64,000 bases of DNA from an uncultured delta proteobacterium (GTDB taxonomy: Bacteria > Myxococcota_A > Polyangia > Haliangiales > Haliangiaceae), in NCBI GenBank assembly GCA_963764695.1, contig CAVXTW010000015.1, positions 221,845 through 285,844 of the forward strand, written 5' to 3'. This document shows, piece by piece, positions 1 to 57,544 of the stretch. The notes beneath the pieces were generated by a model. The model saw nothing but the letters and a program-made list of their open reading frames with translations. It ran no database searches and had not been told where the DNA came from. The position numbers and the translations under genes are program-made. Each line of letters begins with the position of its first letter. Within the stretch, counting starts at the first letter, position 1.

Positions 1-1376
<1,376 letters not shown>

Positions 1377-1607
1377 GCACCCCTCGTCCGAGCGACGGAT
1401 TGTAGCCCAGGCGACCTTTCCCGTCACCGTCACCAGAGATGGGACGTTCGACACCGCCCCCAGGTTTCATCGACTCTTGCCGCGGCCGGTCAGATGTGCC
1501 CCGGAGTGCGACAGCATTGCGGCATCTCGATGGATTTCGTCTCGTGATACCGTGGGTCGGATGGGGCCCACGGCTGTTCGGGTCTGGACCGGCGCAGGGG
1601 GGAAGCG

Positions 1608-2588
1608 GTGATGACGCGGTGGCGGCACGGCGTGATTCTGGGGGTCTGCGTGGCGTTGATCCTCGCGCTGGCGGTGGAATCGGCCGAGGCGAGGAGGCGG
1701 CGCCGGGCTCGCCGCTCGCGCCCGCAGCCGGTGGTGCCGGCCCTGACCATCGACGGCCTGCCCAATGTCCGCTCCGGCTCGGCGCTGGCCATCGACATGG
1801 ACACGAACACCATCGTCTACGGCAAGAACCCGGACACGGTGCGGGCCATCGCGTCGACCGGGAAGATCTTCGTGGCCCTGCTCGCGCGGCGGCGCGGCAT
1901 CGACCTGGACGGCGTCACCGAGATCACGATGGACGACGTGCACTACGCGCGCGGCGGCTCGCGCACGCACCTCGATCTGCGCCGCAGCTTCCGCAACCAC
2001 GATCTGCTGCGCGCCATGCTGATCGCGTCGGACAACCGGGCGGTGACGGCGGTGGGCCGCGCTGTCGGGCTGACCCCGGAGCAGCTGGTGCGCGAGATGA
2101 ACGGGCTCGCGCTCGACCTCGGGCTCAAGCGCACCACGTTCGTCGACCCGACCGGGCTCAACGGCAACTGGTCAACGGCGCGCGAGATGGCGCGGGCCCT
2201 GGCCGCCGCGCTGCGCGATCCGGTGCTGGCCGAAATTCTGGCCACGCGATACGCCAGCGTGAGCACGGTCGGCGAGGGCCGCGTGCGCACCATCCACTAC
2301 TCCAACACAAACCGCGTGCTGCACCGCAACGGGATGCGCGTGCTGGGCGGCAAGACCGGCTACACGCGTCCTGCCGGATATTGCCTGGTCACCGGTGTCG
2401 AGTTGAACGGACGTCGTCTAGCGTTCGTGTTCCTCGGCGGCGACGGTGAGCTGACCCGGTTCGCCGATTTCAACAGGGTGGTCGGGTGGATGGGCGGCAG
2501 CGGCGGAGGCGGCGGAGGCGGCGGCAGCGGGCCGGACGTCGCGGTCGGCGCGGCGGCGATGCAAATGAAAGCCGAAGACTCCCGCTGA
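1608..2588 (+). CDS. D-alanyl-D-alanine carboxypeptidase (peptidase S11, PBP5/DacA-like)
   Basis: Signal peptide, then SxxK (ASTGK), SxN (SDN) and KTG (GGKTGYT) active-site motifs, and a Gly-rich C-terminus. Confidence 0.8.
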   Translation: MMTRWRHGVILGVCVALILALAVESAEARRRRRARRSRPQPVVPALTIDGLPNVRSGSALAIDMDTNTIVYGKNPDTVRAIASTGKIFVALLARRRGIDLDGVTEITMDDVHYARGGSRTHLDLRRSFRNHDLLRAMLIASDNRAVTAVGRAVGLTPEQLVREMNGLALDLGLKRTTFVDPTGLNGNWSTAREMARALAAALRDPVLAEILATRYASVSTVGEGRVRTIHYSNTNRVLHRNGMRVLGGKTGYTRPAGYCLVTGVELNGRRLAFVFLGGDGELTRFADFNRVVGWMGGSGGGGGGGGSGPDVAVGAAAMQMKAEDSR

Positions 2589-2733
2589 TGAACCCGGAGC
2601 GTCGGGCGATGATGCGGGTATCCACTGGAGGTACTCATGCAGCCTCGCTTGACGCTCGGTTCGACTCGGATTCTCTCTCTCCCTCGCGCTCGGCCTGGTC
2701 GGGGTCGCGGCGGCGCCGGCCGGCGCCCAGCGC

Positions 2734-3498
2734 ATGCCGGACATGGCCACGCTCGACCGGGGTGACGGCATCTCGCGCATCGGGCTCGATTTCGGGGCCA
2801 CGTTCGTCGATGACTCCGCCGATGACGACGCGGCCATGCGCTTCGACATCTTCGGCCAGTTCGTCAGCTGGCAGGGCTTCGGCATCTACGGGTCGCTGCC
2901 CATCGCCCGCTCGGTGACCGACGGGGACGACACCACCGCGATCGGAAACTTCGATGTCGGCGCTCTGTATGTGATCGAGAGCCCGGCGCTGTCGCTCGTG
3001 TTCCGCGGCGGCGTGGCGCTGCCGACGGCCGACGACGACGCCGACGGATTCATCACCAACTACTTCGCCAGCTGGTCGCGGCTGACCGACGCAGTCCAGG
3101 TGATCCCGAACGTGACGTACATGCGGCTCGGCTTCTCGCCGCTGTTTCACGCCAGCAACCTGTTCGTGCGCGCCGACGTGGGCTTCGACCTGGCCGTGGC
3201 CGAGGAGGACGACAACCTCGGGCTGGCCCCGGATACGCTGTTCCGGCTCAACGTGGGCGGCGGCATCGATTTCGGCTCGGTCGCGCTCATGGCCGAGCTG
3301 GTCAACCTGGCCACCACCGACGACCTCCAGTTCGACGTCGGCGACGAGGAAGAGGACTTCATCCACACCTTCGCGGTGAGCGCGCGCTTCATGGGGACGA
3401 CCATGCAGCCGTACGTCACCTTCGGCATGCCGATCGACACCTACGGGCTGGACACGGTCAACTTCTTCCTCGGCGCGGGGCTGCAAGCGCGGCTGTGA
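2734..3498 (+). CDS. Hypothetical acidic secreted protein, possibly an outer-membrane beta-barrel
   Basis: 254-aa ORF with alternating hydrophobic residues. A signal-peptide-like stretch (LGFSLSLALGLVGVAAAPAGAQR) lies in frame just upstream (2653..2733) but has no canonical start, so the true start is uncertain. Confidence 0.4.
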   Translation: MPDMATLDRGDGISRIGLDFGATFVDDSADDDAAMRFDIFGQFVSWQGFGIYGSLPIARSVTDGDDTTAIGNFDVGALYVIESPALSLVFRGGVALPTADDDADGFITNYFASWSRLTDAVQVIPNVTYMRLGFSPLFHASNLFVRADVGFDLAVAEEDDNLGLAPDTLFRLNVGGGIDFGSVALMAELVNLATTDDLQFDVGDEEEDFIHTFAVSARFMGTTMQPYVTFGMPIDTYGLDTVNFFLGAGLQARL

Positions 3499-3533
3499 TC
3501 GACCGGGCGTGAGCGCGCGGCCGTGATCGGCCC

Positions 3534-5073
3534 ATGGCGGTGCTACAGTGCGCTGCCATGGGCTGGTCGCGTCGCGAGGTGCTGGCCGCGCTGGCCGCGG
3601 CCGGCGCCGCACCCGGATGGAGCGCGCTCTTGAGCGCGTGTGGCGGGGCGCGGCCGGCGCCGGCCGTCGTGCCGCGGGAGCCGGTCGCCGCCGAGACCGT
3701 CGCCGGGCTGCGCGATCAGCTGCGCCAGGTCGCGGCTGACCTGGGCCGGCGCTTCCGCTCCGTCGCGGTGCGGGCCGAGCTGGGGCGGGCGACGCGCGCG
3801 GTGGTCGAGCCGGAGGAGCGCGGCTTCGATCAGCGCGGGCGGTCGAGCCTGGTCCTGGCCGGGTTCGATGGCGCGGGCTGGTTCGAGCAGGCGACGTCGG
3901 ATTCTGTCGCGAGATGGAGTAGCGGCGGCGGCGGCGGCGCTGAGGGCGCGGGCGGTGCGGCGGACCATCGTGCCTCGGGCGGTGGCGCCGGCGGGGGGAG
4001 CAGCGAAGGTCGCGGCTGAGCGAGGTCAAGCTCGGCATCGATCCGCGCGACAAGCCGATCGGCGACTGGCTCGAGCGCGCCGGCGCGTCTGCAAGAGCGG
4101 GCGGCCAAGGTGGGCGGCAGCCGACTGGTGTACCGCGCGACCGCCGTCGAGGTGGACGACAGCGACGTCATGTTTCATCGGCGATGGACGCGACCTGGCC
4201 CAGCGCCTCGTGCGCACGCAGGCGCGGGTGCTGTTTCTGGCCTGGACGGGAGCGATGCTGGCGGCGGAGGAGGCGACCGCATCGGGCGCGCTCGGCCTCG
4301 AGGGCGCCGACATCTCCGGTGGCGAGATCGAGCGCGCCGCCGAGGGCGCCCTGACTCTTCTGACAAGCTCGCAGATGGAGGCCGGCACGCGCGAGCTGCT
4401 GCTCGATCCGTCGGTGGCCGCCCTGCTGATCGGGTGTGGCGTCGCGCGCGGCTTCGAGGGAGACGCGTGGGTGCGCGGCGCGCGCGCGGAGACCATGCAG
4501 GATAGAGCGGGCGCGGCCCAGGCGGTGACCCTGCACGACGATGCGACCGCGGGCCGCGCCTATGGCGGCTACCGGTTCGACGACGAGGGCTTTCCGGCCG
4601 CCCCGCTGGCGCTGATCGAGCGCGGCGTGGTGCGCGGCCCGCTTTGCGACGCGGCCGCGGCGTCGGCGCTGCGCCGTCCTCGCACCGGACACGGTCGGCG
4701 AGTCGGCCCGCTCGATGCGGTCGAGCCGCGCCCCTCGCACCTCGTGCTGGCGCCAGGGACGCGAGCGAGAGACGATCTGATCGCCGCGGTCAACGGACAG
4801 GGCTATCTGATCGAGAGCGGCGTGGACGGCAGCGGCGATCCGGTATCGTGGCGGGCGGCGGTGCGCGCGCGGAGGGCGCGAGAGATCGCGCGCGGCCGCC
4901 TGACCGGGCGCGTGTACGGGCCGGTCGTGGTGGCCGGCGACGTGCCTGCCCTGCTCGGCGCGGTGCGCGGCATCGACAAGGGCGTGCAGGCGTTCGGCTG
5001 GCGCGAGCGGGGCGCGGCCGTTTCGGTGGCGACGCCGTCGGTGCTCACGCGCGGCTGGGTGGGCGTCGAATGA
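3534..5073 (+). CDS. TldD/PmbA-family metallopeptidase with a twin-arginine (Tat) signal; appears disrupted by about 4 frameshifts
   Basis: N-terminus MGWSRREVLAALAAAGAAPGWSALLSAC (RR motif). Protein-like text switches frames at roughly 3900, 4020, 4090 and 4180. The C-terminal half (GGYRFDDEGFPAAPLALIERGVV...) is the conserved TldD/PmbA C-domain, and no HExxxH motif is seen. Confidence 0.6.
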
Positions 5074-5156
5074 CCGAGGTGTTCGGGTGCGCGAAAGCGG
5101 CCGTGTCGGTGGCGACGCCGTCGGTGCTCACGCGCGGCCGGGTGGGCGTCGAATGA
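5012..5156 (+). repeat. Direct near-perfect tandem duplication (~62 bp units, 83-bp period) of the 3' end of the first TldD/PmbA gene, including its stop codon
   Basis: gcggccgtttcggtggcgacgccgtcggtgctcacgcgcggctgggtgggcgtcgaatga at 5012..5073 is repeated at 5095..5156 with 2 mismatches. Confidence 0.8.
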
Positions 5157-5172
5157 TCGATCGGAGGCCGGC

Positions 5173-6540
5173 GTGGCGGTGACGGTCGAGCGGCTGGTGC
5201 GGCTGCTCGACGCCGCGGCCGGCGTCGACGAGTGGATCGCGGTCGAGTCGCGGGTGCGCAGCGTGTCGCGCGCGAGCGGGGCGCGGCCGGTGCGCAGCGA
5301 AGGCGAGGTGGTGTCGCTGAGCGCCGTCATCCTGCGCGACAGCGAGCAGGGTCGCGGCAGCGCGCGGCTGTGGCTCGACGGTGAGGACGCGGACGAGGCG
5401 CGGGCGCAGCGGCTCATCGCCATGGCCTCCGAGCGCGCCGCCCTCACCCTCGGTCCGGCCTGGACGCTGCCGGCGCCGGCCGCACCCGCGCAGGTGACGG
5501 TCGCCGATGCCGAGCTCGAGCGCGATCCGACCGGCGCGGTCGACCGGGCCATGGCGCAGGTCAACGCGGCGCAGGGCCGGCTGGCCGCGATCGGCCGCGC
5601 GCGCATCGAGGTGCAGGTGCACTCGCACGCGGCCGAGACCAGCCGCGGGTTCGCCAGCCAGTACACCGCGACCGCGGCGCTCTACGATCTGGCAGCCAGT
5701 GTGGGTGGCGAGAGCGGGTCGCCGCTCGAGCGCGTGCATGGATGCGTGCGCAGCGCGGCGCGGCTGTCGCTCCACCGGCGCATCGCCGACGCGGCCCGCG
5801 CCGCGTCGCGGCGCAAGGGAGCGCGGCCGCTCCAGCCCGGGCGCTACGATCTGCTGCTGCGGCCGGGCGCGATCGCCGGGCCGGGCGCCGGGCTCGATCG
5901 ATCGGCCGGCGCGGCCGCCTACGGCTGGTTCGCACCGCTGGTGGCCCACGCCGACGCGGAGCGGGTGCGCCTCGGGATCAGCCATCACCGGCCGGGCCAG
6001 CCGGTGTTCGCGGCTGGGGGCGGCGAGGGTGTCAGGCCCGGTGCCGCGCCGCGCGCCGGCGATGCCGATGTGTTCACGCTGGCGAGCGACGGCACCATCG
6101 ACTTCGGCCTGCTGAGCGCGCCGTTCGGCGAGCTGGGCGAGCCGGTGCGCCGCTTCGAGATCGTGCGCGACGGAGTGGCCGCCGGGCTGTCGCTCGATCA
6201 CCGCGAGGCCGCGCTGGCCCACACCACGCCGAACGGCGGCGTGCGCAACCTGGTACTGGACGCGGGCCGGACACCTGCAGCCGGGCTGGCCGCGCCGGGC
6301 CAGCGGCCGCTGCTCGACGTCGCGCATCTTTCCTGGATCGACTGCGACCCGCGCAGCGGCGCGCTGACCGCCGGCATCGGGGCGGCGACCGTGCGCGGCG
6401 CGGCGGTGACGGGCGGCCTGGTGGTCGGCAACGCGTTCGACCTGCTCGGCCGGGCGCGCCTGTCGGCGGAGACCGGCACCCTGGCCTGGTACCGCGGGCC
6501 GATCGCCATCCGCATCGACGGCGTGGACGTCACGGCTTGA
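5173..6540 (+). CDS. TldD/PmbA-family protein (second member of the pair)
   Basis: 455-aa intact ORF starting at a GTG, immediately after the duplicated 3' end of the preceding TldD-like gene. The C-terminal region fits the PmbA/TldD fold (GLVVGNAFDLLGRA...). Confidence 0.7.
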   Translation: MAVTVERLVRLLDAAAGVDEWIAVESRVRSVSRASGARPVRSEGEVVSLSAVILRDSEQGRGSARLWLDGEDADEARAQRLIAMASERAALTLGPAWTLPAPAAPAQVTVADAELERDPTGAVDRAMAQVNAAQGRLAAIGRARIEVQVHSHAAETSRGFASQYTATAALYDLAASVGGESGSPLERVHGCVRSAARLSLHRRIADAARAASRRKGARPLQPGRYDLLLRPGAIAGPGAGLDRSAGAAAYGWFAPLVAHADAERVRLGISHHRPGQPVFAAGGGEGVRPGAAPRAGDADVFTLASDGTIDFGLLSAPFGELGEPVRRFEIVRDGVAAGLSLDHREAALAHTTPNGGVRNLVLDAGRTPAAGLAAPGQRPLLDVAHLSWIDCDPRSGALTAGIGAATVRGAAVTGGLVVGNAFDLLGRARLSAETGTLAWYRGPIAIRIDGVDVTA

Positions 6541-6618
6541 GTCTCGACCGACCGGGCGATCAAGGGTGGCGGCTCGGCGGCCAGGCCAGCGACGCCTCAG
6601 CGGCTCAGCGGCGGCGGC

Positions 6619-7521
6619 TCACCCGGCCACGGCCGCGACCTCGCCGCGTCGAGCCGCGCCCGGCGACACGCCGATGAAGCGCTTGAACGCGCGACTGAAC
6701 GCCGCCTCCGATCGATAGCCGAGCCGGCTCGCCATCTCGCCGACCCCGAACGTCTCCTCGCGCAGCCAGTTCATGGCCACGTGCATGCGCCAGCGGGCCA
6801 GGTAGTGCATGACCGGCTCACCGACCAGCTGCGTGAAGCGCGCCGCGAACGCGGACCGCGACATCCCGACCTCGGCGGCCAGCGTCGACACAGTCCACGG
6901 CCGCGCCGGCTCGCGATGGATGGCCGCGATGGCGCGCCCGATCTGTCGGTCTTGCAGCGCGCCCAGCCATCCGGTCTGCGCGGCCGGGTCCCGCTCGATC
7001 CAGGAGCGAATCGCCTGGATGACCAGGATGTCGGCCAGCCGCGTGATGACCGTCTCGCCGCCGGGCCGCAGCTCCCTTGCCTCGGCCGCCATCAGCCGCA
7101 GCGTGCTCTGCAGCCACTCCGTCTGCGGCGAGCTCGACGCCTGCACGTGGATCATGCGCGGCAACAGCGCGATCAGATGATGCGCCGCCGGATGATCGAA
7201 CCTGACCGCACCGCACACCAGGCTGGTCGGCGCGCCGCCTCCGCCGTGGCGCAGCACCGCGTAGCGATCGCTGACATGCTCGTGCCGCAGATCGTCAACC
7301 CGCGGCGCCGTCACCCCCGGCTCGCTGAGCAGGCGGTGCCCGCGCCCATGCGGCACAAGCGCCAGGTCACCCGGCTCGAGCGCGGCCCGCTCGCCGCCAT
7401 CCACCTCGAGCCAGCAGCGACCGGTGGTCAGGACATGAAAGCTGAGGCACCCCGGCCGCGCCGGCATCGCCAGCCCCCAAGGCGCCGACATCTCCGACCG
7501 GCAATAGAAGGTGCCGGTCAT
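6619..7521 (-). CDS. AraC-family transcriptional regulator with an N-terminal cupin domain
   Basis: Minus ORF. The internal start MTGTFYCRSE at 7521 is favoured over the ORF-track start at 7809, which would overlap the next gene. C-terminal AraC HTH region (...SRAFKRFIGVSPG...). Divergent from the 7738 gene. Confidence 0.8.
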   Translation of the reverse strand: MTGTFYCRSEMSAPWGLAMPARPGCLSFHVLTTGRCWLEVDGGERAALEPGDLALVPHGRGHRLLSEPGVTAPRVDDLRHEHVSDRYAVLRHGGGGAPTSLVCGAVRFDHPAAHHLIALLPRMIHVQASSSPQTEWLQSTLRLMAAEARELRPGGETVITRLADILVIQAIRSWIERDPAAQTGWLGALQDRQIGRAIAAIHREPARPWTVSTLAAEVGMSRSAFAARFTQLVGEPVMHYLARWRMHVAMNWLREETFGVGEMASRLGYRSEAAFSRAFKRFIGVSPGAARRGEVAAVAG

Positions 7522-7737
7522 GCGCAGAAAGTGAAGCGCCTCGCCCAGCGGATCCTCGGTACGCGGCGCCTCCAGCACGCCGCCAGTATCGCGCTGACGC
7601 CCGCTCCTGCGTCCAGCCAGCCTGGACGCCCGAGCAAGAACCCGCGACGCCCGGTCATTGATGCGCCTGCCGACCAGCCCGATAGTGGACGCACTGCGGC
7701 GCAGCTCGCAGGTCGAATCCAAGAAGGAGCAAACACA

Positions 7738-8379
7738 ATGCGAATCGGGATCCTGGGTACCGGCGACGTCGGCAAGGCACTGGCCAACGCCTTCCTGGCA
7801 CTCGGTCACGACGTGAAGATGGGCTCGCGCGAGCCCGCCAACCCGAAGGCCACGGCGTGGGCGACCGAGGCTGGCTCGAAGGCGTCAGCCGGCACCTTCG
7901 CCGACGCCGCCGAGTTCGGCGAGCTGGTCGTCCTGGCCACTCTCGGCGCCGCCGCCGACAGCGTCCTCCGCGCCGCCGGCCCCGACCGCCTGGCCGGCAA
8001 GATCGTCATCGACACCACCAACCCCCTCGACATGTCTGCCGGCTTCCCGAAGCTCTCCGTCGGCCACACCGACTCCGGCGGCGAGCAGGTCCAGCGCCTG
8101 GCTCCCGACGCCCACGTCGTGAAGGCGTTCAACACCGTCGGCAACCCCCTCATGTTCCGCCCCGACCTGCCGGGCGGCCCCCCCGACATGTTCATCTGCG
8201 GCAATGACGACGACGCCAAGAAGAAAGTATCGGCTCTACTGGCCGACTTCGGCTGGGGCGTCGTCGACATCGGCGGCATCGAGGGCTCCCGCCACCTCGA
8301 GCCCATGTGCATCGTCTGGGTCGCCCACGGCTTCCGCTCCGGCTCGTGGAACCACGCCTTCAAGCTCCTGCGCAAGTGA
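7738..8379 (+). CDS. NAD(P)-binding oxidoreductase, NADPH-dependent F420 reductase (NpdG)-like
   Basis: RBS aaggagc 8 nt upstream of the ATG. N-terminal Rossmann motif MRIGILGTGDVGKALA. 213 aa. Confidence 0.75.
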   Translation: MRIGILGTGDVGKALANAFLALGHDVKMGSREPANPKATAWATEAGSKASAGTFADAAEFGELVVLATLGAAADSVLRAAGPDRLAGKIVIDTTNPLDMSAGFPKLSVGHTDSGGEQVQRLAPDAHVVKAFNTVGNPLMFRPDLPGGPPDMFICGNDDDAKKKVSALLADFGWGVVDIGGIEGSRHLEPMCIVWVAHGFRSGSWNHAFKLLRK

Positions 8380-9677
8380 TCGCCCGCCGGCCGATGAAGG
8401 CTACGCGCCGCGGCTCGCGCTCACCTTCGCGACCACGCCATCGCTCGAAGCCCCGCGCATTGCTTCGCGCGAGGACTCGTGCGTGAACATGGCTCCTCGA
8501 GGAGAGAGGTGGCGAGCTGGTCGCATACTCCCGACTGCTCGCTCCATGACCGAGATCCATTGGTGCTTGGCCAGTCGCGCTCTGCGGACTCGACCTCGAA
8601 GCGAAGCTCCTCGCCGAACCAGAATTGACGCGACTGTGTTGGGCCCGCGCCCGCTCTCAAGCCGAGCGAGCTCGATCTAAGTTGGCCAAGGTCGTCTGTT
8701 TCGACGGTAGCGATGGAGCACGCAAAATGACCCGTGGCGTGGCGTTACTCGGAGAATCGCGCCGTCATCATTCGCTCCTCGCTATTGGTCCTCCTTGATG
8801 ATGAAAATCGGTAGAGCATGCTGCGATCATTGTCGCACTCTTGTGCGCCCGTCGTCGTGAGAAGCTCCAGAGTCCCCTTGTCCTGTGCGTCCTCGATGGC
8901 CTTGGTGCTGTCAAGAACGCACGGAAAGTTGTAAGTCGCCAGGTGAGCGGCGCGCTCAGGACGGCCACGACGGTATCTTGGTCCGTGGAAGAAAGGTTCT
9001 GAACCACTCAGCGAGCCGAAGCGTTTCCTCTGGTGAGTCTACTCCCTGGCGGGTTCCGTATTGCGTCAATGATTCCCTGGCCGTGATGATAACGGCAAGC
9101 TTGATCGCCTCAATGAACTCGCGTTGATTCATCGATCGAATAATCCGGGTAGAGTCATTTGTTCAGGTCAATCAGCTCCTGCAATGCATCGGCGGGGGCA
9201 TCCGTGGACTGGCGGAGATTGCGAATCCCTCGCGCGAGCAAGATTCGTGCTGTTCCATTGTACGGTCCCTTCAGGGCGGGGAGCGGCAAGTGCTCTCGAG
9301 TAGGGAGCGCGATGGCCGGACCGCTGCTGCGATCGTAACCAGGCACAACCTGTTTCATTGCATGCCTGCTGGCCCTCGTGATGGTGGGCGAGATCATCGC
9401 CGACCCTGGAAACACGCTGCACTCCTCGAATCGCCCGACAGGTAGGGCACGACGCCGCGGCCAGCGGCAGCGGGCCTGCCGACCGTCCGAGAGCGGCAAG
9501 GTCGAAGAGCGCGGACCCGCCGGCCTCCCGCCATGCGGCCCTGGGCAGCGAAGTAGAGCGTGCCGACGAACCGGAAGAGAGCCTGCGAGGCTGTCGGCGG
9601 TGTGAGCAGCGGCTACTGTACCGTTCAGGCATTCGACCAGGCAGCCGCTCCGGCAGGGACACGTGCGGACCAACCAG
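8380..9677. other. Lower-GC (~55-58%), ORF-poor region immediately 3' of the RHS toxin tip; candidate immunity gene(s) or orphan toxin remnants
   Basis: GC visibly drops relative to the ~70% flanks. Only short, weak ORFs (e.g. minus 9155..9400 ending ...ILLARGIRNLRQSTDAPADALQELIDLNK, minus 8421..8660). Position matches where Rhs immunity genes normally sit. Confidence 0.4.
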
Positions 9678-10097
9678 CTACCGGCCCGGACTCGATAGTC
9701 TCTCTGGCGATCTGACGCATCCAAGCCCGGAGTGGCTCACGAGTTCATTGGGCATACACGCCGGACAAGCGGGATATCCCGAGGAGATGCCGCTAGAGTG
9801 GCCAACAGCAGCGGACCCTGACCCCATCGCCCATGGCTGCGCTCCACCCCTGACCCAGTTGAGACGATATCGGTGGGATTGTTGTCGTCCGAGCTCGGGG
9901 TGCCGGACGACCCGCCGTCCCAAGCAAGTCTCTGCATGATGCTCCCGACGGCGTTGCGAGGCCACGCTACCTACGTCCGGGCAGCCAGCGCAGACGGCGC
10001 GCAACGTGAAGTCGGTCATCGAGCCGAGCAACCCGCCGCCGCCGCCGTCCCCGCTGGTCACGTTCGAGATGAAATCGACGATGTCATCCCAGATGGA
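9678..10097 (-). other. C-terminal toxin (hypervariable) domain of the RHS protein, downstream of the DPxG autoproteolysis motif
   Basis: ~140 aa after IDPSGF (SIWDDIVDFISNVTSGDGGGGG...). GC falls across this segment. No recognisable toxin family by eye. Confidence 0.5.
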
Positions 10098-13000
10098 AAA
10101 TCCGCTCGGGTCGATGAAGGTGGTCGGGTTGTTCCAGGCGTAGCTGTAGCGGTTGTGGCTCTGGCTGAAGAGTGGGGCCTGGACGAAGGGATCGGGCGTG
10201 AGGAAGTGGCGGGCCTTCGGGTCGTAGATGCGGCCTTTCATGTTGATCAGGCCGATCTCGTCGTCGTGCTCGTGGCCGGTGTAGCCCTCGTGCGGGCCGC
10301 CGTGGAGGTCGTCGTCGTAGGGCGTATACGTCGGCTTGATGCGGCGACCCCAGGGGTCGTAGAAGAGCTCCGCGAGGAAGCCTGAGATTGCCCGGCCGGC
10401 CCGGTTGGTGACGAGGGTGGTCGAGCCCTGAAGGTCGATGTGCAGGTATGAGACCGGCGTGTTGGTGATCTGCCCGTCGGGGGCCTGGATTCGATTGACC
10501 TGAGCGACGATGCGTCCCTCGGCCACGATGTTGTGTAGATTCTCGGCCTCTCCGCCGGCCGCGGCCCGGATGCGGCGTTCGAACAGACCACCCACGTACA
10601 GCGTCGATTGGTTGTCGTCGCGCTTGAGCACTCGCGTGCCGTGCGCGTCGTAGGCATAGAAGGTCAGCCATGGGCCACCTTCGCCGATGCCGCCGGTCAA
10701 CAGCGTCGGCAGGCCCCAGCTGTTGTACTCGATGGTGCGGTTGGGGCCGCTTGTCTGTCGCCCCGCGGCGTCGTAGCCGTACGAGATCGTGTTACGCCGG
10801 GTCATGGCGTGCGGAGGCGCGTTCTCGCCGTACCCGTACGTGGCGTTCTGGTTGGTGGGCGCGCCTGTCACCACCTCGCTCTCGAGCTTGCCGACGACGT
10901 CGTAGTCATACGATGCCGTGAGCTGGGCCGTTCCGTTGCTGGCGCTCCACCGCTTCAGGCGATCGAGCTCGTCATACGCGTACGTATCGGTGCGCCCGTG
11001 AAACAGGTCAGATCGGCTGATGACGTTGCGATTGAGGTCGTAGTCGTAGGCGAGCTGGCCGAGGCGACCGATGGTGCCGGGGCCCATGACGTCGCGCGTG
11101 CGCAGGAGCCCGACCTCGTCGTATTCATTCGTGGTGACGACGCCGTTGCCGTACCGCTCGCTGGTCAGCTGACCGGCGACGTTGCGGTCCTCCGCGGTCC
11201 AGTAGGGCTGGTCGGTACCCGCATCCCTGATCTGAAAGAGGTAGCCCTGCGCGTTGTAGGCATGGGCGATGGTCAGGCGGCCAGCGCCCGCGGGCGCGCC
11301 GGGAAGAACCGGATAGGTGATGGTCGACGGGCGCCCGATGTCGTCGTAGCCATAGTCGATGTCGTACGATGTGCCTTCGATGTTCCATCGCGTCGAGGAC
11401 GGCCGCCCGATCGGATCGTAGTCGTAGGCAATGGTGACCCCATCGGGGCTCGTGGAGCTGGCCGGCTTGCCGATGCCATTGGTGCGGGTGTCCCAGTTGT
11501 GAATGGCCAGGCCGTCGGGTGAGTTGACCTGCTCGATGCGACCCAGGGCGTCGAACTGGTACTCGGTGACGGCGTCGTTTCCATCAATCTCCTCGGTCGG
11601 CTCGCCGAAGGCGTTGTAGCTCGAGATCGTGGTGCCGGCGCTCGGGTCCACGAGCACCGTACGACGCCCGAGCTTGTCGTACTCCAGCGCCTGGCCGGTT
11701 CCGTCGGGCGCAATCACGTCGCTCACGAGAGCGAACGGGTCGTACTTGAACCGGGTGACGAGCCACGCTGTTGACTCCGGGTCGTCTTCGTGGCGCGAAT
11801 CGATGAGCCCGTCCGCTCTCTCGAGGACATAGCTGTGGTTGCCCTCGGCATCGTGCGTGTGGCTCTCGAGCCCGATGTACTCGTGGCTCACGGTCGCTTC
11901 GTCTGGCGCCGTGCTCGCGAGAAGCCGATCGAGGCCATCGTGGACGTAGGTCGTGTTCTGGATCGGGCCCTCCGAACCTGTCGCGAACGGTCGCGACACA
12001 GAGCGGATGCGCCCGAGGCGATCGTATGCGGTGCGAACCGTGCTGAAGCCGCTGATGAAGGCCGGAATGGTTTGATCGACCGGTCGGCCGAGCTCGTCCA
12101 TCACGACGGTCCTTGCCGCGAGGACTCCGCCGGATCCATCCGGCACCGTCAGGACATGGATGAGCGGGCCGAACGTCGCGTATCGCTCGAACCCGCCATC
12201 GGCATGGTTGACCTCGCGCAAGCGGCCGAAGCGGTCGTACTTCATGGTGGCCGGGACGATGCCGTTGGCGTCGGTGGTGTCGAGAACGACTCCGAGGCCG
12301 GTGTGGACGGTCACCGAGGTCGTCTGATCGAGCGCGTTGGTGATGGTCGCCGGGTAGAGGCCGAGGCTGTCGTAGGTGAGACTGGTCGTGCGAGTCTCCT
12401 GATCCTCCCCCTCCGCATTGGCGACGGTGACGGACGATACGTTGCCGAAGCCGTCGTACGCGTAGCTGGTGGTGAGGAGAAACTCGGCATCACCCGGCTC
12501 GACGATGACATCCTTGATGTTGCCGTTGTCGTGCGTGTCGAAGCCGACCTGTCGGGTCTGGCACTTGTTCTCGGGACGCGTGCACGACGTCGAGGTGCGC
12601 GTCCGCGGCAATGCCAGGAGCCAGTTCTCGAAGTCCTGCTCGTAGGTCATGGTTTCGACCTGGTCCGAGCCCGGCGCCGCCGTGGTGACCTGCTTCGGGC
12701 TCTGGAACTCGTCGTACAGCAACGACGTGGTCTGCGAATGGAGCGCGGTCCACGCCCCGCTCGGGCCCACCTTCTCGCGGTCCGAGACGGACACGCTGTC
12801 GAGCTGCGTGAACCACGTGCCGGGCTGCGTGCCGAGTTGAAACTTGAGCGCCCGCGCCGTCGTTCGCTCGTAGAACACCGGCGAGCCCTCGCGCGAACCC
12901 GACGTGACGGTGTACGTGATCTGGCGCGGCTGGCCCGCGAAGGGATAGACGTACGTCGTGAACCCGTTGCCGTCCGGGTAGTGCTGGGCGGTGTGATTGT

Positions 13001-15668
13001 CGAACTGCACGACGGTGAGGGCATCGCCCCGCTCCACGTCGCGGATGTCGTGCTGTTCGAACCCCAGCCACCCGCGTCCGCGCAGGTCGGCCCGCGCCCC
13101 CCAGTAGCGGTGCGTGAACTGGCGCCACGGCGACTTTGGATCCACGCCGTTGGCCAGCCAGTGGGAGGACACGATGCTGCCGCCCCGGTGCGGACACGTG
13201 AGCGGATAGGAGCAGTTGACGAGGGCTCGGCCGTGCACGGACGCGTTCGCCAGGGTCGTGTACTCGACCTCGGCGCGTACCCCGATGCCGGCTACCTTGA
13301 CGCGATAGAGCTTGTCCGGGATGTCGCCGACCCGCTTGTGCAGTCGAAGGAAGCTGGTCGTCGTGTCCGGGGTGTCCGACCAGACCTGGGCGATGTCCAT
13401 GAGACCGTCGCCGTTGAAGTCCAGCGGCTGGATACCGGAATACGGAAGCACCCAGCTCGCGTTCGTGGCGATGTTCATGCCGCGTCGATCCCAGGCCCGG
13501 CCGGTCCATGTGTAGAGCTGGATGCCACGTGCGTGATCGCCCGTGTTCTCGGGTGTCCCCGCGTGGATGAGCAGGATGTCGTCGGCGCCATCGCCGGTGA
13601 AGTCGACGACGCGCACGCGGAGGTTGTCGTCCGCCACCGGGGGGCAGTCGTCGATCTCGTCATTGGGGGGACTCGGGGGGACCGTCCAGCAGCCTCGAGA
13701 AGCCAGTCCCGCTCCCCAGCTGCACCTTCAACCCCGTGCACGGGTACACGGCGTCTTCGACACCGTCGCCGTTGATGTCCGCGAAGTGAAGGTTGCGGCG
13801 GTCCAGGTTCTCCGGCTCGCGAAGGAAAGGCAGATTGAACTCGAATGACCCACTCGTCCATCTCACCGTCGTCGTTCATCTTGATGGCCCCGTACCCGGG
13901 GTCGGACGGGGTCCACAGGAGCAGCCGGGGATTCGCGCCGGTGGCCGCGACGCTGCGAAACTGGTGGTCGAAGCGGGGCGATGTCGTCCCAGGTTTCGAG
14001 CGGTCCGTGCCAGTTGATTCCATCCACGTAAGGGCCGAATCCGGTCGGCAGATTCAGGCGGTACGTCCACTGCAGCCGGTTGTCTGGCTCCTGGCCGGCA
14101 GCGCGCACGATGCGCGGTCCGACGTAGTCGGGCAGACCATTGCCGTCGAGATCGACGAAGTATCCGGCCCACAGTCCACCGAGCCGACCGGACTCTCGCA
14201 TTCTCGTGAATATCTGAATGTCGGTGAAGACCTGCTCGTAGGTCGATCCGGTCGATCGATACAGCGAGAACTGCGTGATGTCGTCGAGCACCGGAACCTC
14301 GACCATGAGATCGAGCCGTCCGTCTCGATCGAAGTCGATGGGCCGCACCCTGGGCTCCTCGTCTGGACCGAGGCTCGGAATGCCCGCGTCCCGCGGGTCG
14401 CCGAATCCGTCGCCGGTACTGAAGCGCAGCTTCCAGTCGTTCTCCATGTCTCGATAGATGAGATCGTCGAGGCCGTCGCCGTTGATGTCGCCAGGAATGT
14501 AGTAGCGACCGTGGCGGGCCGCCTGCGCCACGTCGGTGACGTCGGTGTCGATGCGCTCGTAGGTGGCGGAGGTGCCGGTGGGTCCAGTCGAACTCCAGCG
14601 CGTTCAGGCAGACGGGCGGTTCACCGTCCGCCGGATCCCCGCCGTCGCATTCGGTGACGCTGCGAAGCTGACTGCGACCGGTCATGCCGCCGTTCACGTA
14701 GCGCAGCGTGTACTCGCGCAACACCCCCGCTCCATCGCTGATCCGGATCGTGCTGAGGCGACGCTCCCACGCCATGTGAATGCTTCCGGGCTCGTCGGTT
14801 CCGGGATGGAAGCTGTCGACCTTGTCGGTCCTGTCTTCGTATCCGAACTCGATCGTGCGATCGGGCCCGTAGGTGATCCGCTCCGGCACCATGTCCACGG
14901 CCCACTGGCCGTCATCGCTCTCCACTGTCGAATACTCGACAGACGATGGCATTTCCGTTGCGGTCTTCGACACTGGTCAGCGCCCACGCGGCGGTCAGCC
15001 GATCGATCGTGGGTTCGAAATGCGGATCTTCATCATCGAATCGCGAGGCATGGAGCCCGTATGCCTTGACCGGATCGTAGGTCATGATCCGGCCGTCCTT
15101 GGTCCAGACCTTGAACTGGCGCGGCGGCCGTTCCGGTCCGTCCGAGCTGTAGGCTCGGACGCGCGCGAAGGTCTCGCGCTCGGTGCGGTAGTCCTGCTCC
15201 TCGCTCCACTCCAGGTCGGTCGGCCGGAGGCGTTCCCCGTCCAGGCAGTAGGCGTTCGTGCGGAGGAAGTCGGGGTTCTTGCTTCCGCCGTCCTGGGCCC
15301 ACGTGCGCGCGCATGGCGCGATGGACGACAGGCCGGCCGAGAGCGACCAGCCGACACCGACGAGGCCGTTGCCGCCCTGGGAGTTGTAATGAAGGGCGAG
15401 CCCGGGCTCGAGGCCGCCGCGACCGTCCGGCACCCATAGCGGGAGGTGGTACTCCGCCGCGCCGTTGTGATTCACCGTGAGCGTGCCCTCGGTCCAGCCG
15501 GAGCTTGGCTGCGTGTCGACGATGCCGCCCGGCGGCGGCGCGAGAGCGCGCCGCGGCGGAGTCGCCCGCTCCAGTGGAGCCTTCGCTGTCGTGGAGCGAG
15601 GACGCGCTCTCGTCCGACAGGCACGCGGCCACCAGCGCGAGGCCAAAGACGGCCACTCGGCTCGTCAT
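9678..15668 (-). CDS. Large SpvB/FG-GAP/RHS-repeat polymorphic toxin lipoprotein (Tc-toxin BC-fusion-like), ~2000 aa; N-terminal third carries about 5 frameshifts
   Basis: Start ATG at 15668 with lipoprotein signal MTSRVAVFGLALVAACLS. SpvB/TcC N-terminal signature (GAAEYHLPLWVPDGRGGLEPGLALHYNSQGGNGLVGVGWSLS) at ~15500..14950, a TcdB-mid-N-like stretch at 14950..14580, and FG-GAP repeats (DINGDGLDD, IDFDRDGRLD, VDLDGNGLPD) at 14560..13660. The intact 1319-aa ORF 9678..13637 holds many YD/RHS repeats and the RHS core end NNPTTFIDPSGF at ~10115..10098. Frame changes at ~15560, ~14950, ~14580 (a ccc homopolymer), ~13866 and ~13650. Confidence 0.85.
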
Positions 15669-16057
15669 CCTTCGGCTGGCAGCCTGCGCGGTGCGCCGCA
15701 TCCGGCGGCAGCGGAATGCACTGGATCTCTGGCTACGTCTCATCATCTTCTTCCCCCGGCAGCGGATTGGGCGAACTGCAGGCAGACGACCGCCGTGCGG
15801 CCGAATCGGGCCGTCGTGTCGATCGCGCACGAAGGTGGCCTGGCGCGAACGCCGAGCGCGTGCGCGATCTGGGTCGCGGCGAGCGGCTCGATCAGCAGCT
15901 GAGCGGGGTCGCCCTCAGACGGTTGGTGGCGGTGCGGACGGGCCGCGACGCTTCGCTACGGCGATGCAGTCTCCTGGTGGTGGTCGTTCGCATCGCAGCG
16001 AGTCACTCGCATCGCGATGCTTCACCACTCCTGCCACAAGAAAACGCGCCTGAGAAG

Positions 16058-16074
16058 TGCCGCAAATTGCGGCA
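16058..16074 (-). terminator. Short GC-rich palindrome (gccgcaa-a-ttgcggc) ~35 nt after the stop of the C39-like gene; weak terminator candidate
   Basis: 7-bp arms with a 1-nt loop. Only a weak T-rich stretch follows on the minus strand. Confidence 0.25.
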
Positions 16075-16108
16075 GGGGGAGTGCCACCTACCCGGGGGAG
16101 AGTCTTGA

Positions 16109-16759
16109 TCAGGGCGCGGACGCGGTGGCGCCCGGCGCCGTCTCTGACCGGCGCGGCGATTTCTCGGACGGGCCGAGCACGACGAGCGCGGGGCGACCGG
16201 CCGGATCCCACTCGGCGGCCAGGTCGCGCCACTGGCGGATGCCGAAGCCGCCGGCCGGATCGATGGTCGCGACCTCGCGGCGGGTCGGGTGGAAGCCGAC
16301 CACGACCTCGAAGTGGCTGAGGCGGCGGCTGCCGCGCGCGCGCAGGAGGCCGACAACGACGGGGCGGCCGCGCTCGAGCTCGTGCACGAGCGTCGTGCGG
16401 TCGGCGCGGATGGCGAACGCGGTGAGTCCGCGCGAGCGGGCCAGGTCGCGCAGGGCGCCGAGCTTGGCGCCGCGGCCGCCGCTGCGGGCCTCGGCGACCA
16501 CGGTCGCGTCACGGAGGGCGATCGGGCGGCCCCAGAAGCGGGCCACCATGGCCAGCGCGGCCGGGCCGCAGTCGCGGGCGGCCTGCTGCCGGATCGGTGT
16601 CACCGGGCCGGCGGCGATCCAGCCGCTGTCGCGCGAGATGGTGGATGGCTCGACCGGACGGGCCGACGACGGAAAGCTTCTGACGCATCCGGTCAGGGCG
16701 GCCGCCAGCGCGAGCGCGCCCCACGCCGCGGCGTGCGTGGGGCGCAGCGAGCGACTCAT
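16109..16759 (-). CDS. Lipoprotein with a peptidase C39-like (papain-fold cysteine peptidase) domain
   Basis: Signal + lipobox (ALAAALTGC). Motif RQQAARDCGPAALAMVARFWG resembles the Q...C-G-x-A-x-L catalytic region of C39 peptidases. Sits immediately upstream, on the same strand, of the RHS toxin gene. Confidence 0.6.
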   Translation of the reverse strand: MSRSLRPTHAAAWGALALAAALTGCVRSFPSSARPVEPSTISRDSGWIAAGPVTPIRQQAARDCGPAALAMVARFWGRPIALRDATVVAEARSGGRGAKLGALRDLARSRGLTAFAIRADRTTLVHELERGRPVVVGLLRARGSRRLSHFEVVVGFHPTRREVATIDPAGGFGIRQWRDLAAEWDPAGRPALVVLGPSEKSPRRSETAPGATASAP

Positions 16760-17049
16760 CAGAGGAGAACGACCAGCAGAACGACGCCGAGGACGATGGC
16801 GGTGGTCGATCCGATGATGACGAAGGTCGCGCCACCCTCGAAGTCGGCCGCCTTGGGCTGCGTGCGCTCGGCGGCGGCGTAGCGGGCGGTGTCAGCCGCG
16901 CGGTCCGGCTGCGCGTCCGTCCGGGCGGGCTGGGTCTCGGTTGCACTTGCGCGCGGCACCACCGGCGGGGCGGCCAGCGCGGTCGGAACGCCGGCGCCCG
17001 CGGCCAGGCACAGACTGAGAAGAGTCGCGGTCACGATTCGCTTGCTCAT
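16759..17049 (-). CDS. Small Ala/Pro-rich secreted protein with an N-terminal signal peptide and a C-terminal hydrophobic anchor
   Basis: MSKRIVTATLLSLCLAAGAG ... FVIIGSTTAIVLGVVLLVVLL*. Its stop overlaps the start of the C39-like gene (TGATG). Confidence 0.4.
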   Translation of the reverse strand: MSKRIVTATLLSLCLAAGAGVPTALAAPPVVPRASATETQPARTDAQPDRAADTARYAAAERTQPKAADFEGGATFVIIGSTTAIVLGVVLLVVLL

Positions 17050-17352
17050 GATGGGTGACATCGCAATCGGCATGCCAGCGCATCGCCGCTCCGCGATTGA
17101 TCTCCGCCCGGATGGCGCTGTGGCGGCCGGCCGCACTGTGGCGGCAAGGCTCGTCGGTTTGACAGGTGCCAGCTCATTGCGCAAACTGGATTCACAGCGC
17201 GAGCTGCCACGCGCAACCCTCTCCGGCCAGCCCATGCCTGGCTCTCAAGGGGGCAAAGGGTAGAGCCATCTTCTCGGCAGTCGAGTCGTCTCCTTCCCTC
17301 GCGACGCGGGGATGCATGGGCTCCAGTCCGCGACGCGGGAGAGGAAGAGAAG

Positions 17353-18042
17353 ATGACCGCGAAACGTGATCTGAAGAAGCGAATCCGCGCGCGCGCCTCC
17401 CGCACCGGCGAGCGCTACAGCGCAGCCCGCCAGCAAGTCCTGGGCGGCCGCGGCAGCGGCGGCGGTGGCGGCAAGGTGCCCTTCATCGAGCTGCGCGATC
17501 TGTCGGGCGAGGCGGCCGCCCTCGGCATGCGCTGCCCCGTCCACATCTTCCCCGAGCTGGCCCGCCGCATCGACTGCACGGCTCTGCTCGTCCAGATCCG
17601 CGACGCGCTGCGCGCGACCGAGGGCGACTTCCGGACCGAGCTCCTGCGATCGGTCATCCTGCGCGGCGAGCTGCCGGACCTCCCGCACCGCCTCGCGGAC
17701 GATCTCCTGCGCGAGGCGCACCTGCGCGACGCCGTCCAGCACGTCAGAGTGCTCGCCAGCCGCAGCGATCCGATGACCGCGCCCCGGGCGATCCCGATCT
17801 CCTTCATCGAGAACGAGACCTTCATCGCCCGCGCCCGCGCCGGCATCGGCGGCCTCAGCGAGAGCGGCCGCCTGCTCGCCCTTCACACCGCAGGCAGCGC
17901 CGGCCCCCAGATGGTCATCTGCCAGATCTGGCACTCGCCCATCCCGCAGCGGACCGCGCGCACCCACGCGCTCATCCTGCTGCGGCCCGACGACTTCTTC
18001 GTCAGTCTCGACGAGGCGACGCAGGGCGTCACTCGACGGTGA
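17353..18042 (+). CDS. Hypothetical protein (229 aa) with a basic N-terminus followed by a Gly run
   Basis: Purine-rich RBS (gggagaggaagagaag) before the ATG. Composition is protein-like, whereas the overlapping minus ORF 17245..18078 looks antisense (A/G/D/R-rich). Confidence 0.5.
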   Translation: MTAKRDLKKRIRARASRTGERYSAARQQVLGGRGSGGGGGKVPFIELRDLSGEAAALGMRCPVHIFPELARRIDCTALLVQIRDALRATEGDFRTELLRSVILRGELPDLPHRLADDLLREAHLRDAVQHVRVLASRSDPMTAPRAIPISFIENETFIARARAGIGGLSESGRLLALHTAGSAGPQMVICQIWHSPIPQRTARTHALILLRPDDFFVSLDEATQGVTRR

Positions 18043-18646
18043 CCATGAAGTCGACCTGCGCATCGGTCGAGCCTGCAACGGAGCCGAAGCCGCCGTCGCT
18101 GACCTGCTGGGCGAGATCGTCGACCTTGACCGGTTCGTCGTTCACCGGCGGGAGGTGGCGCAAGGTGACGGTCAGCTCTCCGCTGCCGGCCGCGGCGACG
18201 ACGGTGTTCTCGAGGCCAACCGGTAGTCCGTTGGCGTCCTCGTCGTCGTACGAGTGCGCCAGGGCCGCCTCTGGCTGTGCGCTGGCCGGCCCGTCGACCG
18301 CGGTCCCCGTGTAGAAGATCTGATGCTCGTCGGACTCGTCGGCGACCTCCTCGGTGATGTCCTCGGGCGGATCCTCGAGCCGGTTCTCGAATGTCACGGT
18401 CATGGCGTAGGTGACACCGTCGGCCAGGATGATCGGATCGACCGTCGGGGCCTCGCCGCCGTCGCCGTCCGGGTCGTTGAAGGCCGCCGTCACAGCGTCG
18501 CCGCCGCCGTCGGGCGCGAAGTCGAGCGTGACGGTGGTGATGACCTCGTTCTCGTTGCCGCCGTCCCCTCCGTCGCCGCCATCGTCGTCTCCGCCGCAGG
18601 CGGCCAGGAACAGCGTGGAAGTCAGGATCATGATGCTCGTGCGCAT
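18029..18646 (-). CDS. Acidic Asp/Gly-rich lipoprotein, co-directional with and downstream of the TonB-dependent receptor
   Basis: ATG at 18646. MRTSIMILTSTLFLAACGG lipobox, then a DDDGGDGGDGG linker. 205 aa. Confidence 0.6.
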   Translation of the reverse strand: MRTSIMILTSTLFLAACGGDDDGGDGGDGGNENEVITTVTLDFAPDGGGDAVTAAFNDPDGDGGEAPTVDPIILADGVTYAMTVTFENRLEDPPEDITEEVADESDEHQIFYTGTAVDGPASAQPEAALAHSYDDEDANGLPVGLENTVVAAAGSGELTVTLRHLPPVNDEPVKVDDLAQQVSDGGFGSVAGSTDAQVDFMVTVE

Positions 18647-52041: not shown

Positions 52042-52193
52042 CCACCACCCCCTTCACCCATCCTCGGAGGCGGCACACTAGCACGCGCTGAAGACGATTC
52101 TTCTCGTCTTTGGGGCGCACGCGGCCAATGCGTGCGTTGGCGTACGGTCCATGGAGACGCGGGACAGCCGTGGTTCACCGGTAGACTCGGGCG

Positions 52194-57333: not shown

Positions 57334-57544
57334 GAAGCTTCCACCGCGGACGACAGGCGGAACGGGAGCGTGCAGCGTCTTCGCCGTTCACCCCTCAGGG
57401 GTGCCGGCATCCAGCGCCATGCGGGAGCAGCCGGGTCCCGTGTCGGCGTCGAGCCCCGTCGATCTGAGCGCTTGCCCGGGTGCGTGAACCCGTCCAAGCT
57501 CACCCGGGGCGTGTGGTTCGGCGTCGGGTTCGGGCGGGTCGAGC

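Follow-up and report, generated by a model that had tools for sequence, protein, structure and literature searches.

Replaceable C-terminal tips with downstream immunity genes characterise the RHS/YD-repeat polymorphic toxins (Zhang et al. 2012, PMC3482391), as exemplified by the rhs loci of Enterobacteria, and the exchange of tips between strains, a drop in GC content past the core end and the adjacency of immunity genes are all well known. Tc-toxin TcB–TcC cocoon proteins bring together SpvB, an FG-GAP propeller and an RHS shell with a hypervariable C-terminal toxin.

Amongst the payloads of polymorphic toxins, Tox-SHH (PF15652) is a domain of the HNH/EndoVII fold that possesses an [SG]HH motif and a further histidine (PMC3482391), with examples including Agrobacterium tumefaciens V2c–V3c, Pseudomonas putida Tke4 and P. 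plecoglossicida Txe4 (PMC3482391, PMC10902643). In Agrobacterium V2c, residues H383, H384 and H408 have been targeted by mutagenesis; DNase-linked phenotypes are reportedly attributable to the SHH motif, and V3c, encoded downstream, neutralises these phenotypes (PMC10902643).

The locus described herein, located within a 64-kb stretch of DNA (the window), is one more RHS toxin/immunity cassette, and thus an ordinary kind of element. Its natural unit is a strain-variable cassette at positions 8580–10106, with which a dip in GC content coincides. Every RHS polymorphic-toxin feature that was looked for is found at this locus, with the exception of an uninterrupted frame. Our preferred explanation, that 8580–10106 is an exchangeable C-terminal RHS polymorphic-toxin module in which the indels are more likely consensus errors, is held as a whole with about even confidence.

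The RHS carrier gene and its core end

The left boundary of the RHS locus is formed by a gene for an NADP oxidoreductase (F420_oxidored; 7738–8379, plus strand; Pfam PF03807, E-value 2.9e-18), which converges upon it. The RHS carrier gene itself occupies 10107–14973 of the minus strand and contains FG-GAP repeats and seven stretches of RHS/YD repeats (PF05593, E-value 1.5e-26). Its core is an ORF at 9678–13637 (minus strand), whilst six small indels separate the N-terminal pieces, which extend up to 14973, where a sister strain has an intact 1931-aa ORF; P0001 and P0003, the public gene calls, are likewise fragmentary. An SpvB domain lies 5′ of the core (14915–15664), and the sister RHS gene also returns a match to the TEN_YD-shell. 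The conserved end of the core, of the PxxxxDPxGL type, is present as NNPTTFIDPSGF, with DPSGF at 10112–10098 on the minus strand and a recombination breakpoint within it at 10107. Many members of the toxin family described below also match the RHS core end.

As with the rhs loci of Enterobacteria, this locus has YD repeats and a core-end motif, directly after which homology is abruptly lost and GC drops, and its tip and immunity unit differs between close strains. It departs from them in that the window harbours no displaced orphan-tip array, only short remnants (8380–8781), and in that its frames are broken by many tiny indels rather than by truncation. The combination of SpvB, FG-GAP repeats and a TEN_YD shell is also that of Tc-toxin TcB–TcC proteins. 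Unlike those proteins, no TcA-like partner is seen within the window and the payload appears to be an antibacterial domain of nuclease type, accompanied by an immunity gene, rather than an insecticidal domain of the ADP-ribosyltransferase type.

A strain-variable cassette of low GC content

An identical copy of the 213-aa oxidoreductase protein is encoded by L001, an ENA metagenome contig of 764 kb (the sister contig), which aligns to the window at 98.5 % identity over positions 1–8579 and at 98.8 % over 10107–18498. Between these flanks L001 carries an unrelated segment of 1.4 kb, compared with 1.5 kb in the window. Homology halts at 10107, within the DPSGF codons, and resumes at 8579, such that the tip is variable between relatives that are otherwise ~99 % identical. 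Further stretches of the sister contig (L018 and L019) show 99.5–99.9 % identity to the window (11.8–57.3 kb), and on both sides of the cassette identity lies between 95 and 99.9 %. Given this near-identity outside of a differing cassette, the two assemblies represent two close strains with a cassette swap at the RHS tip. This bears out the suggestion, made in an earlier note on this DNA, that the region is a horizontally exchanged toxin-tip/immunity module, as do the toxin and the immunity gene identified by homology. The sister RHS gene is a single ORF of 1931 aa that ends in its own, different tip and is followed by a 180-aa ORF; neither this tip nor the 180-aa ORF returned a Pfam match. 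The sister cassette is likewise GC-poor (0.53–0.61).

In sliding windows of 200 bp, GC content falls to 0.535–0.62 across ~8600–9400, against a window mean of 0.708, and a scan of all 800-bp segments places the lowest of the entire 64 kb at a start of 8601 (GC 0.5825), ~3.9 standard deviations below the mean of such segments (mean 0.707, sd 0.032). The discontinuity that had been proposed is thus real, but its size and limits require correction. The span 8380–9750, put at ~55–58 % GC, has an overall content of 62.2 %, with 53–58 % confined to ~8700–9300, which corresponds to the immunity gene (0.559 over 8788–9132) and the 3′ end of the toxin domain. Beyond this, GC is 0.606 at 8580–8787 and rebounds to 0.67–0.725 across 9400–9700 (200-bp windows). 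Similarly, a background of ~70 % holds for the window as a whole, yet the adjoining RHS core has a GC content of just 65.8 %, and hence the dip stands out less from its direct surroundings than a comparison with 70 % implies. The low-GC stretch does overlap the 3′ toxin tip of the RHS gene, although the tip starts at 10097, ~350 bp beyond the right-hand edge formerly drawn.

The region was also described as containing only degenerate small ORFs, and this agrees with what is found: between the oxidoreductase stop (8379) and the RHS ORF stop (9678) no ORF exceeds 189 aa, all are fragments, and protein-like pieces switch frame repeatedly. Scans for promoters, terminators and repeats over 8200–10300 were uninformative. 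The lack of any intact ORF, together with the lack of Pfam matches for the raw and stitched fragments of the region, is what would be expected if the dip were a non-coding stretch separating the convergent genes, whether an ordinary spacer richer in AT or an unrelated island, with protein-like fragments arising by chance. That explanation is scarcely credible given two collinear protein homologies over 850 bp, with E-values down to 2.8e-23, and a gene order and overlap conserved as in 13 other loci.

Immediately past the core end lies the tip linker, or pre-toxin region (9629–10097, minus strand), in which frameshift-aware alignment reveals at least two frame changes. A patch within it at 9848–9917 (…SSDDNNPTDIVSTGSG) is common to the otherwise different tip of the sister (82 % identity, blastn) and sits in another frame than the RHS core (tblastn). 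The GC3 signal also shifts frame within the linker. From the core end through to the toxin stop (10097–9129), this assembly contains no uninterrupted frame, but at least nine frame changes and one TGA.

The toxin domain

The toxin domain, of ~165 aa with seven frameshifts, occupies 9129–9628 of the minus strand and was delineated by homology to a 167-aa protein (P0004) and 327 homologues. It comprises a Gly/Ala-rich pre-domain (9628 to ~9440), a predicted nuclease core of His-Me/HNH type, related to Tox-SHH (~9440–9132), and a stop at 9131–9129. The search query, a 71-residue stretch that ends at 9158, was run against 1.84 billion cluster representatives and matched 327 proteins at E-value ≤ 1e-3 and 154 at E-value ≤ 1e-10 (best 2.8e-23). 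These range from 77 to 3689 aa, and nearly all of the matches end ~9 residues short of the C-terminus; the long carriers contain RHS repeats, DUF6531 or a pretoxin HINT domain (PT-HINT). P0004 is the closest relative, and in frameshift-aware alignment its full length matches 9628–9132 with 114 of 167 residues identical (68 %), the frame changing near 9568, 9531, 9475, 9440, 9420, 9365 and 9144. After the last of these changes, LYPGLFDR* terminates at the position typical of the family (9131–9129). No relative closer than 72 % was found, and hence no intact, near-identical copy for direct scoring of the indels. A three-frame concatenated query of the tip, which was noisy, returned only the window's own RHS ORF.

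The in-frame TGA lies at 9155–9157 (minus strand), nine codons short of where members of the family typically end (LNK*LYPG...), and P0004 has a serine at this position. The possibility that this TGA is itself an artefact of frame, arising from an A lost in AAAA (giving LNKMTLPGLFDR), was considered and rejected, as the LYPG sequence in the TGA frame is a better fit to the closest homologue.

The homologies also settle the identity of the peptide MKQVVPGYDRSSGPAIALPTREH..., for which a small, frameshift-obscured immunity protein had been suggested. This peptide forms the catalytic, C-terminal half of the toxin domain and is matched by the 327 representatives, on RHS, PT-HINT and other carriers. 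The position of this MKQVVPGYD… fragment, 3′ of the annotated RHS stop at 9678, would be compatible with a frameshift-obscured immunity protein in an orphan toxin-tip/immunity array. It aligns, however, with the C-terminal ~70 residues of 327 toxins, among them RHS proteins of 2000–3700 aa, and it holds the invariant catalytic-type histidine; the actual immunity family is another protein, whose gene lies in the neighbouring frame at 9132–8782, and the window contains a single toxin and a single immunity copy. The orphan-array reading is therefore very unlikely, and the peptide is toxin.

The consensus of the toxin family reads …YEVG…RS.VGD.LDIHH.GQ.HP..Q..PGY…TAPAIALP..EH..IP…G.Y.GTARDLLA.DIRNLR..TNAPNSSL..LI.LNK.MYP..F.K, and the window copy retains 22 of the 24 columns conserved at ≥ 90 %, close to the family median of 23. 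Three consecutive histidine codons are read at 9378–9386 (minus strand), the second and third of which align with the HH pair of the family (H29 and H30 in alignments A2 and A3). Conservation of this pair is ≥ 90 % for H29 and 100 % for H30, with the motif being AHHH in the window and [ILV]HH in the family. A second conserved histidine, of the kind that serves as an HNH metal ligand, occurs 29 residues past the pair within PTREH (9292–9290, minus strand), and is invariant in alignment A2 (H59). By analogy with H383 and H384 of Agrobacterium V2c (PMC10902643), H29 and H30 are the predicted metal-binding and catalytic residues; the distal H59 would be analogous to V2c H408.

Comparison with Tox-SHH reveals several features in common: a domain placed at the very C-terminal end of its polymorphic toxin carriers (RHS, PT-HINT), an xHH motif followed ~25–30 residues on by a conserved histidine, a small immunity gene immediately 3′, and a profile similarity that is weak but repeated, with 10 of 37 family members matching PF15652 at E-value < 1 (best 3.9e-6). 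On the other side, the signature of this clade is [ILV]HH (HHH in the window) instead of [SG]HH, and the Pfam threshold is not reached by most members, the window copy among them; P0154, for example, scores 20.3 bits against a cut-off of 22.7. The clade also has a long conserved C-terminal extension (…RDLLARDIRNLRxxTNAPNSSLxELIxLNKxMYPxxFxK), its immunity family is not, by sequence, SUKH, Imm11, Imm24, Imm30 or Imm55, and the carrier in the window is of the SpvB and FG-GAP type rather than PAAR/VgrG. Given its [ILV]HH signature and sub-threshold profile scores, the clade is best regarded as related to the Tox-SHH His-Me/HNH nucleases, albeit divergently, and as lying outside the curated definition; DNA cutting is its probable function. 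The window toxin would accordingly act like a Tox-SHH nuclease whilst lacking the literal [SG]HH signature and a score above the profile threshold. Against this identity count the absence of a Pfam match for the window toxin, raw or frame-corrected, the HHH sequence in place of [SG]HH, an AlphaFold2 model of low confidence (pLDDT 36.6, built from only four sequences), and a PDB profile search that found no solved sequence relative. A search of NCBIfam with the toxin likewise produced no match.

The immunity gene

Directly 3′ of the toxin, on the minus strand at 8782–9132, lies the cognate immunity gene of ~116 codons, with an ATG at 9132–9130, a TAG at 8784–8782 and ~7 frameshifts of 1–2 nt. 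Its assignment draws on the neighbourhoods of related toxins. A scan with a narrow toxin alignment identified four genomic loci, from Phycisphaeraceae, Bradyrhizobium, Syntrophobacteraceae and Akkermansiaceae, and twelve metagenomic loci. When only those reaching far enough past the toxin stop are counted (14 loci), an ORF of 117–124 aa belonging to one family is found directly 3′ of the toxin in 13, which span four phyla as well as metagenomes. In 11–12 of the 13 the start codon overlaps the toxin stop by 4 nt, as ATGA. The geometry in the window is the same, as the toxin ends …CGA TGA and the ATG of the next gene, at 9132, forms an ATGA overlap.

The window gene is collinear with this family from M1 through to FIIKEDQ and its TAG, and is identical to the Bradyrhizobium copy (L003) at 62 of 121 positions. 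It retains 8 of 10 invariant columns and 14 of the 20 conserved at ≥ 90 %; each of the 13 relatives keeps at least 18 of these 20, placing the window copy below all of them. A Pfam search of the 13 immunity proteins (E-value ≤ 1) yielded none of Imm-SUKH, Imm11, Imm24, Imm30 or Imm55, NCBIfam gave no immunity match, a hand-stitched immunity query matched nothing, and PDB profile searches returned only spurious matches to designed repeats. Imm24 is described as mostly helical with a C-terminal beta-hairpin and a PxG motif (PMC3482391); the resemblance of this motif to an invariant P-x-G in the present family may be taken as a lead only. Within the 64-kb window the toxin and immunity profiles each match in one place only, and so the orphan array that had been envisaged is not seen.

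With these elements in place, a mode of action can be proposed. Following the core end DPSGF, the minus strand carries in order the linker, the ~165-aa toxin domain (9628–9129) and the immunity gene (9132–8782). The toxin is presumed to be a His-Me-finger (HNH/EndoVII) DNase, whose HH pair (9383–9378) and the histidine 29 residues further on (9292–9290) would hold a metal and activate water. The RHS shell probably encloses the tip, which would be freed by a self-cleaving core end, and in the producer the small immunity protein would bind and block the toxin. On this explanation recombination at the core end brought in the module, which accounts both for its low GC content and for the presence of a different module in a near-identical strain.

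What extends beyond this locus is the clade to which its toxin belongs. The large and mostly unmodelled [ILV]HH clade, now linked to Tox-SHH, comprises at least 327 clusters at 50 % identity, with members in the Planctomycetota, Alphaproteobacteria, Desulfobacterota and Verrucomicrobiota as well as this organism. Its partner is a conserved immunity family of ~118 aa, for which Pfam, NCBIfam and PDB offer no counterpart, and the two represent a clean candidate toxin/immunity pair.

Origin of the frame breaks

In total, the toxin and immunity genes are interrupted by ~16 indels of 1–2 nt, plus the single in-frame TGA. The earlier note considered the cassette to be potentially decayed, and it is possible that the frame breaks are instead assembly errors. 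Between consensus errors and true decay we lean somewhat towards the former, with a smaller but sizeable share of our confidence given to decay and a minor one to a mixture of both. Any such errors would most plausibly stem from polishing, during long-read metagenome assembly, across a segment in which co-occurring strains differ in their cassette.

Several observations favour errors. Within the two genes, insertions are approximately as frequent as deletions, all events are of 1–2 nt with no larger deletions, and the starts, stops and ATGA overlap all fall at family-typical places, with perfect collinearity in both genes and the conserved residues of the toxin kept (22 of 24 columns). The natural ratio of indels to substitutions is roughly 1:10. 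In the alignable flank (8392–8575) there are seven indels against ~5–7 substitutions, a ratio of at least one, whilst the adjacent 3.5 kb of RHS core, which lies between two indel-rich zones, has no indels and 48 substitutions. Synonymous and nonsynonymous changes number 15:12 in the frameshifted RHS N-terminus and 27:21 in the intact core; this equality indicates no relaxed constraint, the broken N-terminus bearing the same signature of purifying selection as the core. Elsewhere in the same assembly, a single extra A or T is found at GTCGAC- or CGATCG-type sites at 2660, 22588, 48774, 49027 and 50236, and three of these insertions disrupt an M36 peptidase gene, for which the sister has one uninterrupted ORF of 1682 aa. 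A split TonB-receptor gene was also considered as evidence of window-specific error, and was set aside: its break is common to the sister assembly, and the GC3 frame plot used in that argument is blind to strand versus antisense.

The foremost alternative keeps the identity of the cassette but holds it to be truly pseudogenised, the RHS gene being dead and its unselected tip and immunity gene having gained real indels and a nonsense mutation. This is a serious, if less probable, explanation. Outside of the RHS locus only six indels separate the two assemblies in ~29 kb, whereas indel density in the cassette is ~1.2 %, roughly 50–100 times that background, and so a special local cause is needed. 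The cassette indels do not occur at the GTCGAC-type motif known from errors elsewhere in the assembly, the TGA at 9155–9157 is a substitution, and none of the relatives of the immunity copy has lost as many conserved residues (14 of 20 columns kept, against a minimum of 18). In addition, the RHS N-terminus is broken too, with fragmentary public gene calls, and the variable cassette of the sister was assembled with an intact RHS frame. Decay must nevertheless be reconciled with the excess of indels over substitutions in the flank, the indel-free core, the lack of deletions larger than 2 nt inside the toxin and immunity genes, their perfect collinearity, the retained toxin residues and the constraint still apparent in the RHS N-terminus, and for this reason consensus error remains the preferred reading.

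A third explanation takes the ~16 indels as a real burst of 1–2-nt events that struck just the RHS tip and N-terminus and the immunity gene. Although improbable, it would, if true, imply that some process generates indels locally and thereby silences a toxin cassette, with neither the substitutions, the large deletions nor the relaxed dN/dS of ordinary decay. Repeated error-prone repair of breaks at the locus is one example of such a process, which would differ from the usual route of displacement or truncation.

For genome scans there is a general caution in this, as degenerate ORFs within a strain-variable, low-GC segment of a long-read metagenome do not, in the absence of reads, equate to decay. 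Ordinary genes on this contig are likewise disrupted by one-base insertions linked to sequence motifs.

Remnants shared with the sister cassette

At its left end the cassette gives way to sequence held in common with the sister strain. Positions 8580–8781 (no strand assigned) form a diverged spacer or remnant 3′ of the immunity gene, in which the sole short match to the sister is a patch at 8652–8675 (92 % identity to L001 10893–10915). The adjoining flank at 8380–8579, again with no strand assigned, is without an intact ORF and corresponds to the 3′ end of the sister 180-aa ORF together with a spacer; its alignment to L001 10563–10839 is of 95 % identity, with seven indel events and ~5–7 substitutions in 200 bp. 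A minus-strand fragment at 8421–8660, earlier singled out for homology searches, lies in this remnant, which is common, with indels, to the 3′ end of that 180-aa ORF, and is not a gene in its own right.

Collinear patches link the window and sister cassettes at 9848–9917 (in the linker, 82 %), 8873–8928 (80 %), 8791–8816 (92 %) and 8652–8675 (92 %). The middle of the sister 180-aa ORF also resembles the C-terminal third of the window-type immunity family, and the same ORF holds DNA for …IFIIKE, albeit out of frame. From these shared patches and the immunity-like 180-aa ORF, it seems that the sister cassette overlies the remains of an older module of the window type.

Architecture and divergence of the RHS locus

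With its FG-GAP repeats and YD shell, and with both an SpvB-domain segment (14915-15664, minus strand) and a C39/C70-type cysteine peptidase (16112-16891, minus strand) lying upstream of the RHS gene, the window carrier resembles a fused TcB/TcC-type cocoon more than it does a PAAR/VgrG-linked T6SS effector. A TcA-like gene was not observed in the window. The N-terminal third of the gene (13673-14971) is broken by six small indels (-2, +1, +1, +1, +1 and -1) relative to the sister, a metagenome contig from a close strain, and public gene calls for the split gene consist of fragments of 222 and 1319 aa. Substitutions in this third display the same ratio of synonymous to nonsynonymous changes as those in the intact core.

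Divergence from the sister amounts to 1.5-4 % across ~3500-16500 of the window, compared with about 0.1-0.2 % between 16.5 and 57 kb. The TldD/PmbA genes and the entire RHS locus seem to lie within a ~13-kb recombination tract, the most extreme portion of which is the RHS tip cassette, comprising linker, toxin domain and immunity gene. The alternative tip of the sister (L001 11319-12248, L001 being one stretch of that contig; sequence …RPTFGHTFTRHGQG…STAYPIP) and its 180-aa downstream ORF (L001 10761-11303) have no match in Pfam or NCBIfam. This ORF looks to be a chimera, in which a novel N-terminus has been fused to the remains of an immunity gene of the window's type.

Single-base insertions and split genes

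At 2660, 22588, 48774, 49027 and 50236, and also at 13973 and 8524, the window harbours a single extra A or T that is absent from the sister contig. These sites are of the GTCGAC or CGATCG type, with GTCGAC becoming GTCGAAC or GTTCGAC, and only a minority of the ~63 GTCGAC sites carry an extra base. The insertions look like a motif-linked basecalling error, possibly one connected to methylation. Three of them break the M36 peptidase/PKD gene (46993-52053, minus strand), which in the sister is one ORF of 1682 aa. The Plug and barrel parts of a TonB-dependent receptor are separate in both the window (18670-21098, minus strand; with a GTTCGAC at 19504, where the barrel part starts) and the sister (L018 11195-13623, a further stretch of the contig). 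Either the two have a real frameshift in common, or both assemblies suffered an identical systematic error.

Strain-specific right end

Homology to the sister contig ends at 57334, immediately past the G6PD gene, and 57335-64000 is therefore a second strain-specific segment. It contains a sigma-54 activator (57545-58543), a WHD+AAA ATPase with the WHD divided between two ORFs (58904-59809 and 59841-61490) and a Pvc16_N protein (61226-62425), and may be the beginning of a contractile-injection (PVC-like) cluster.
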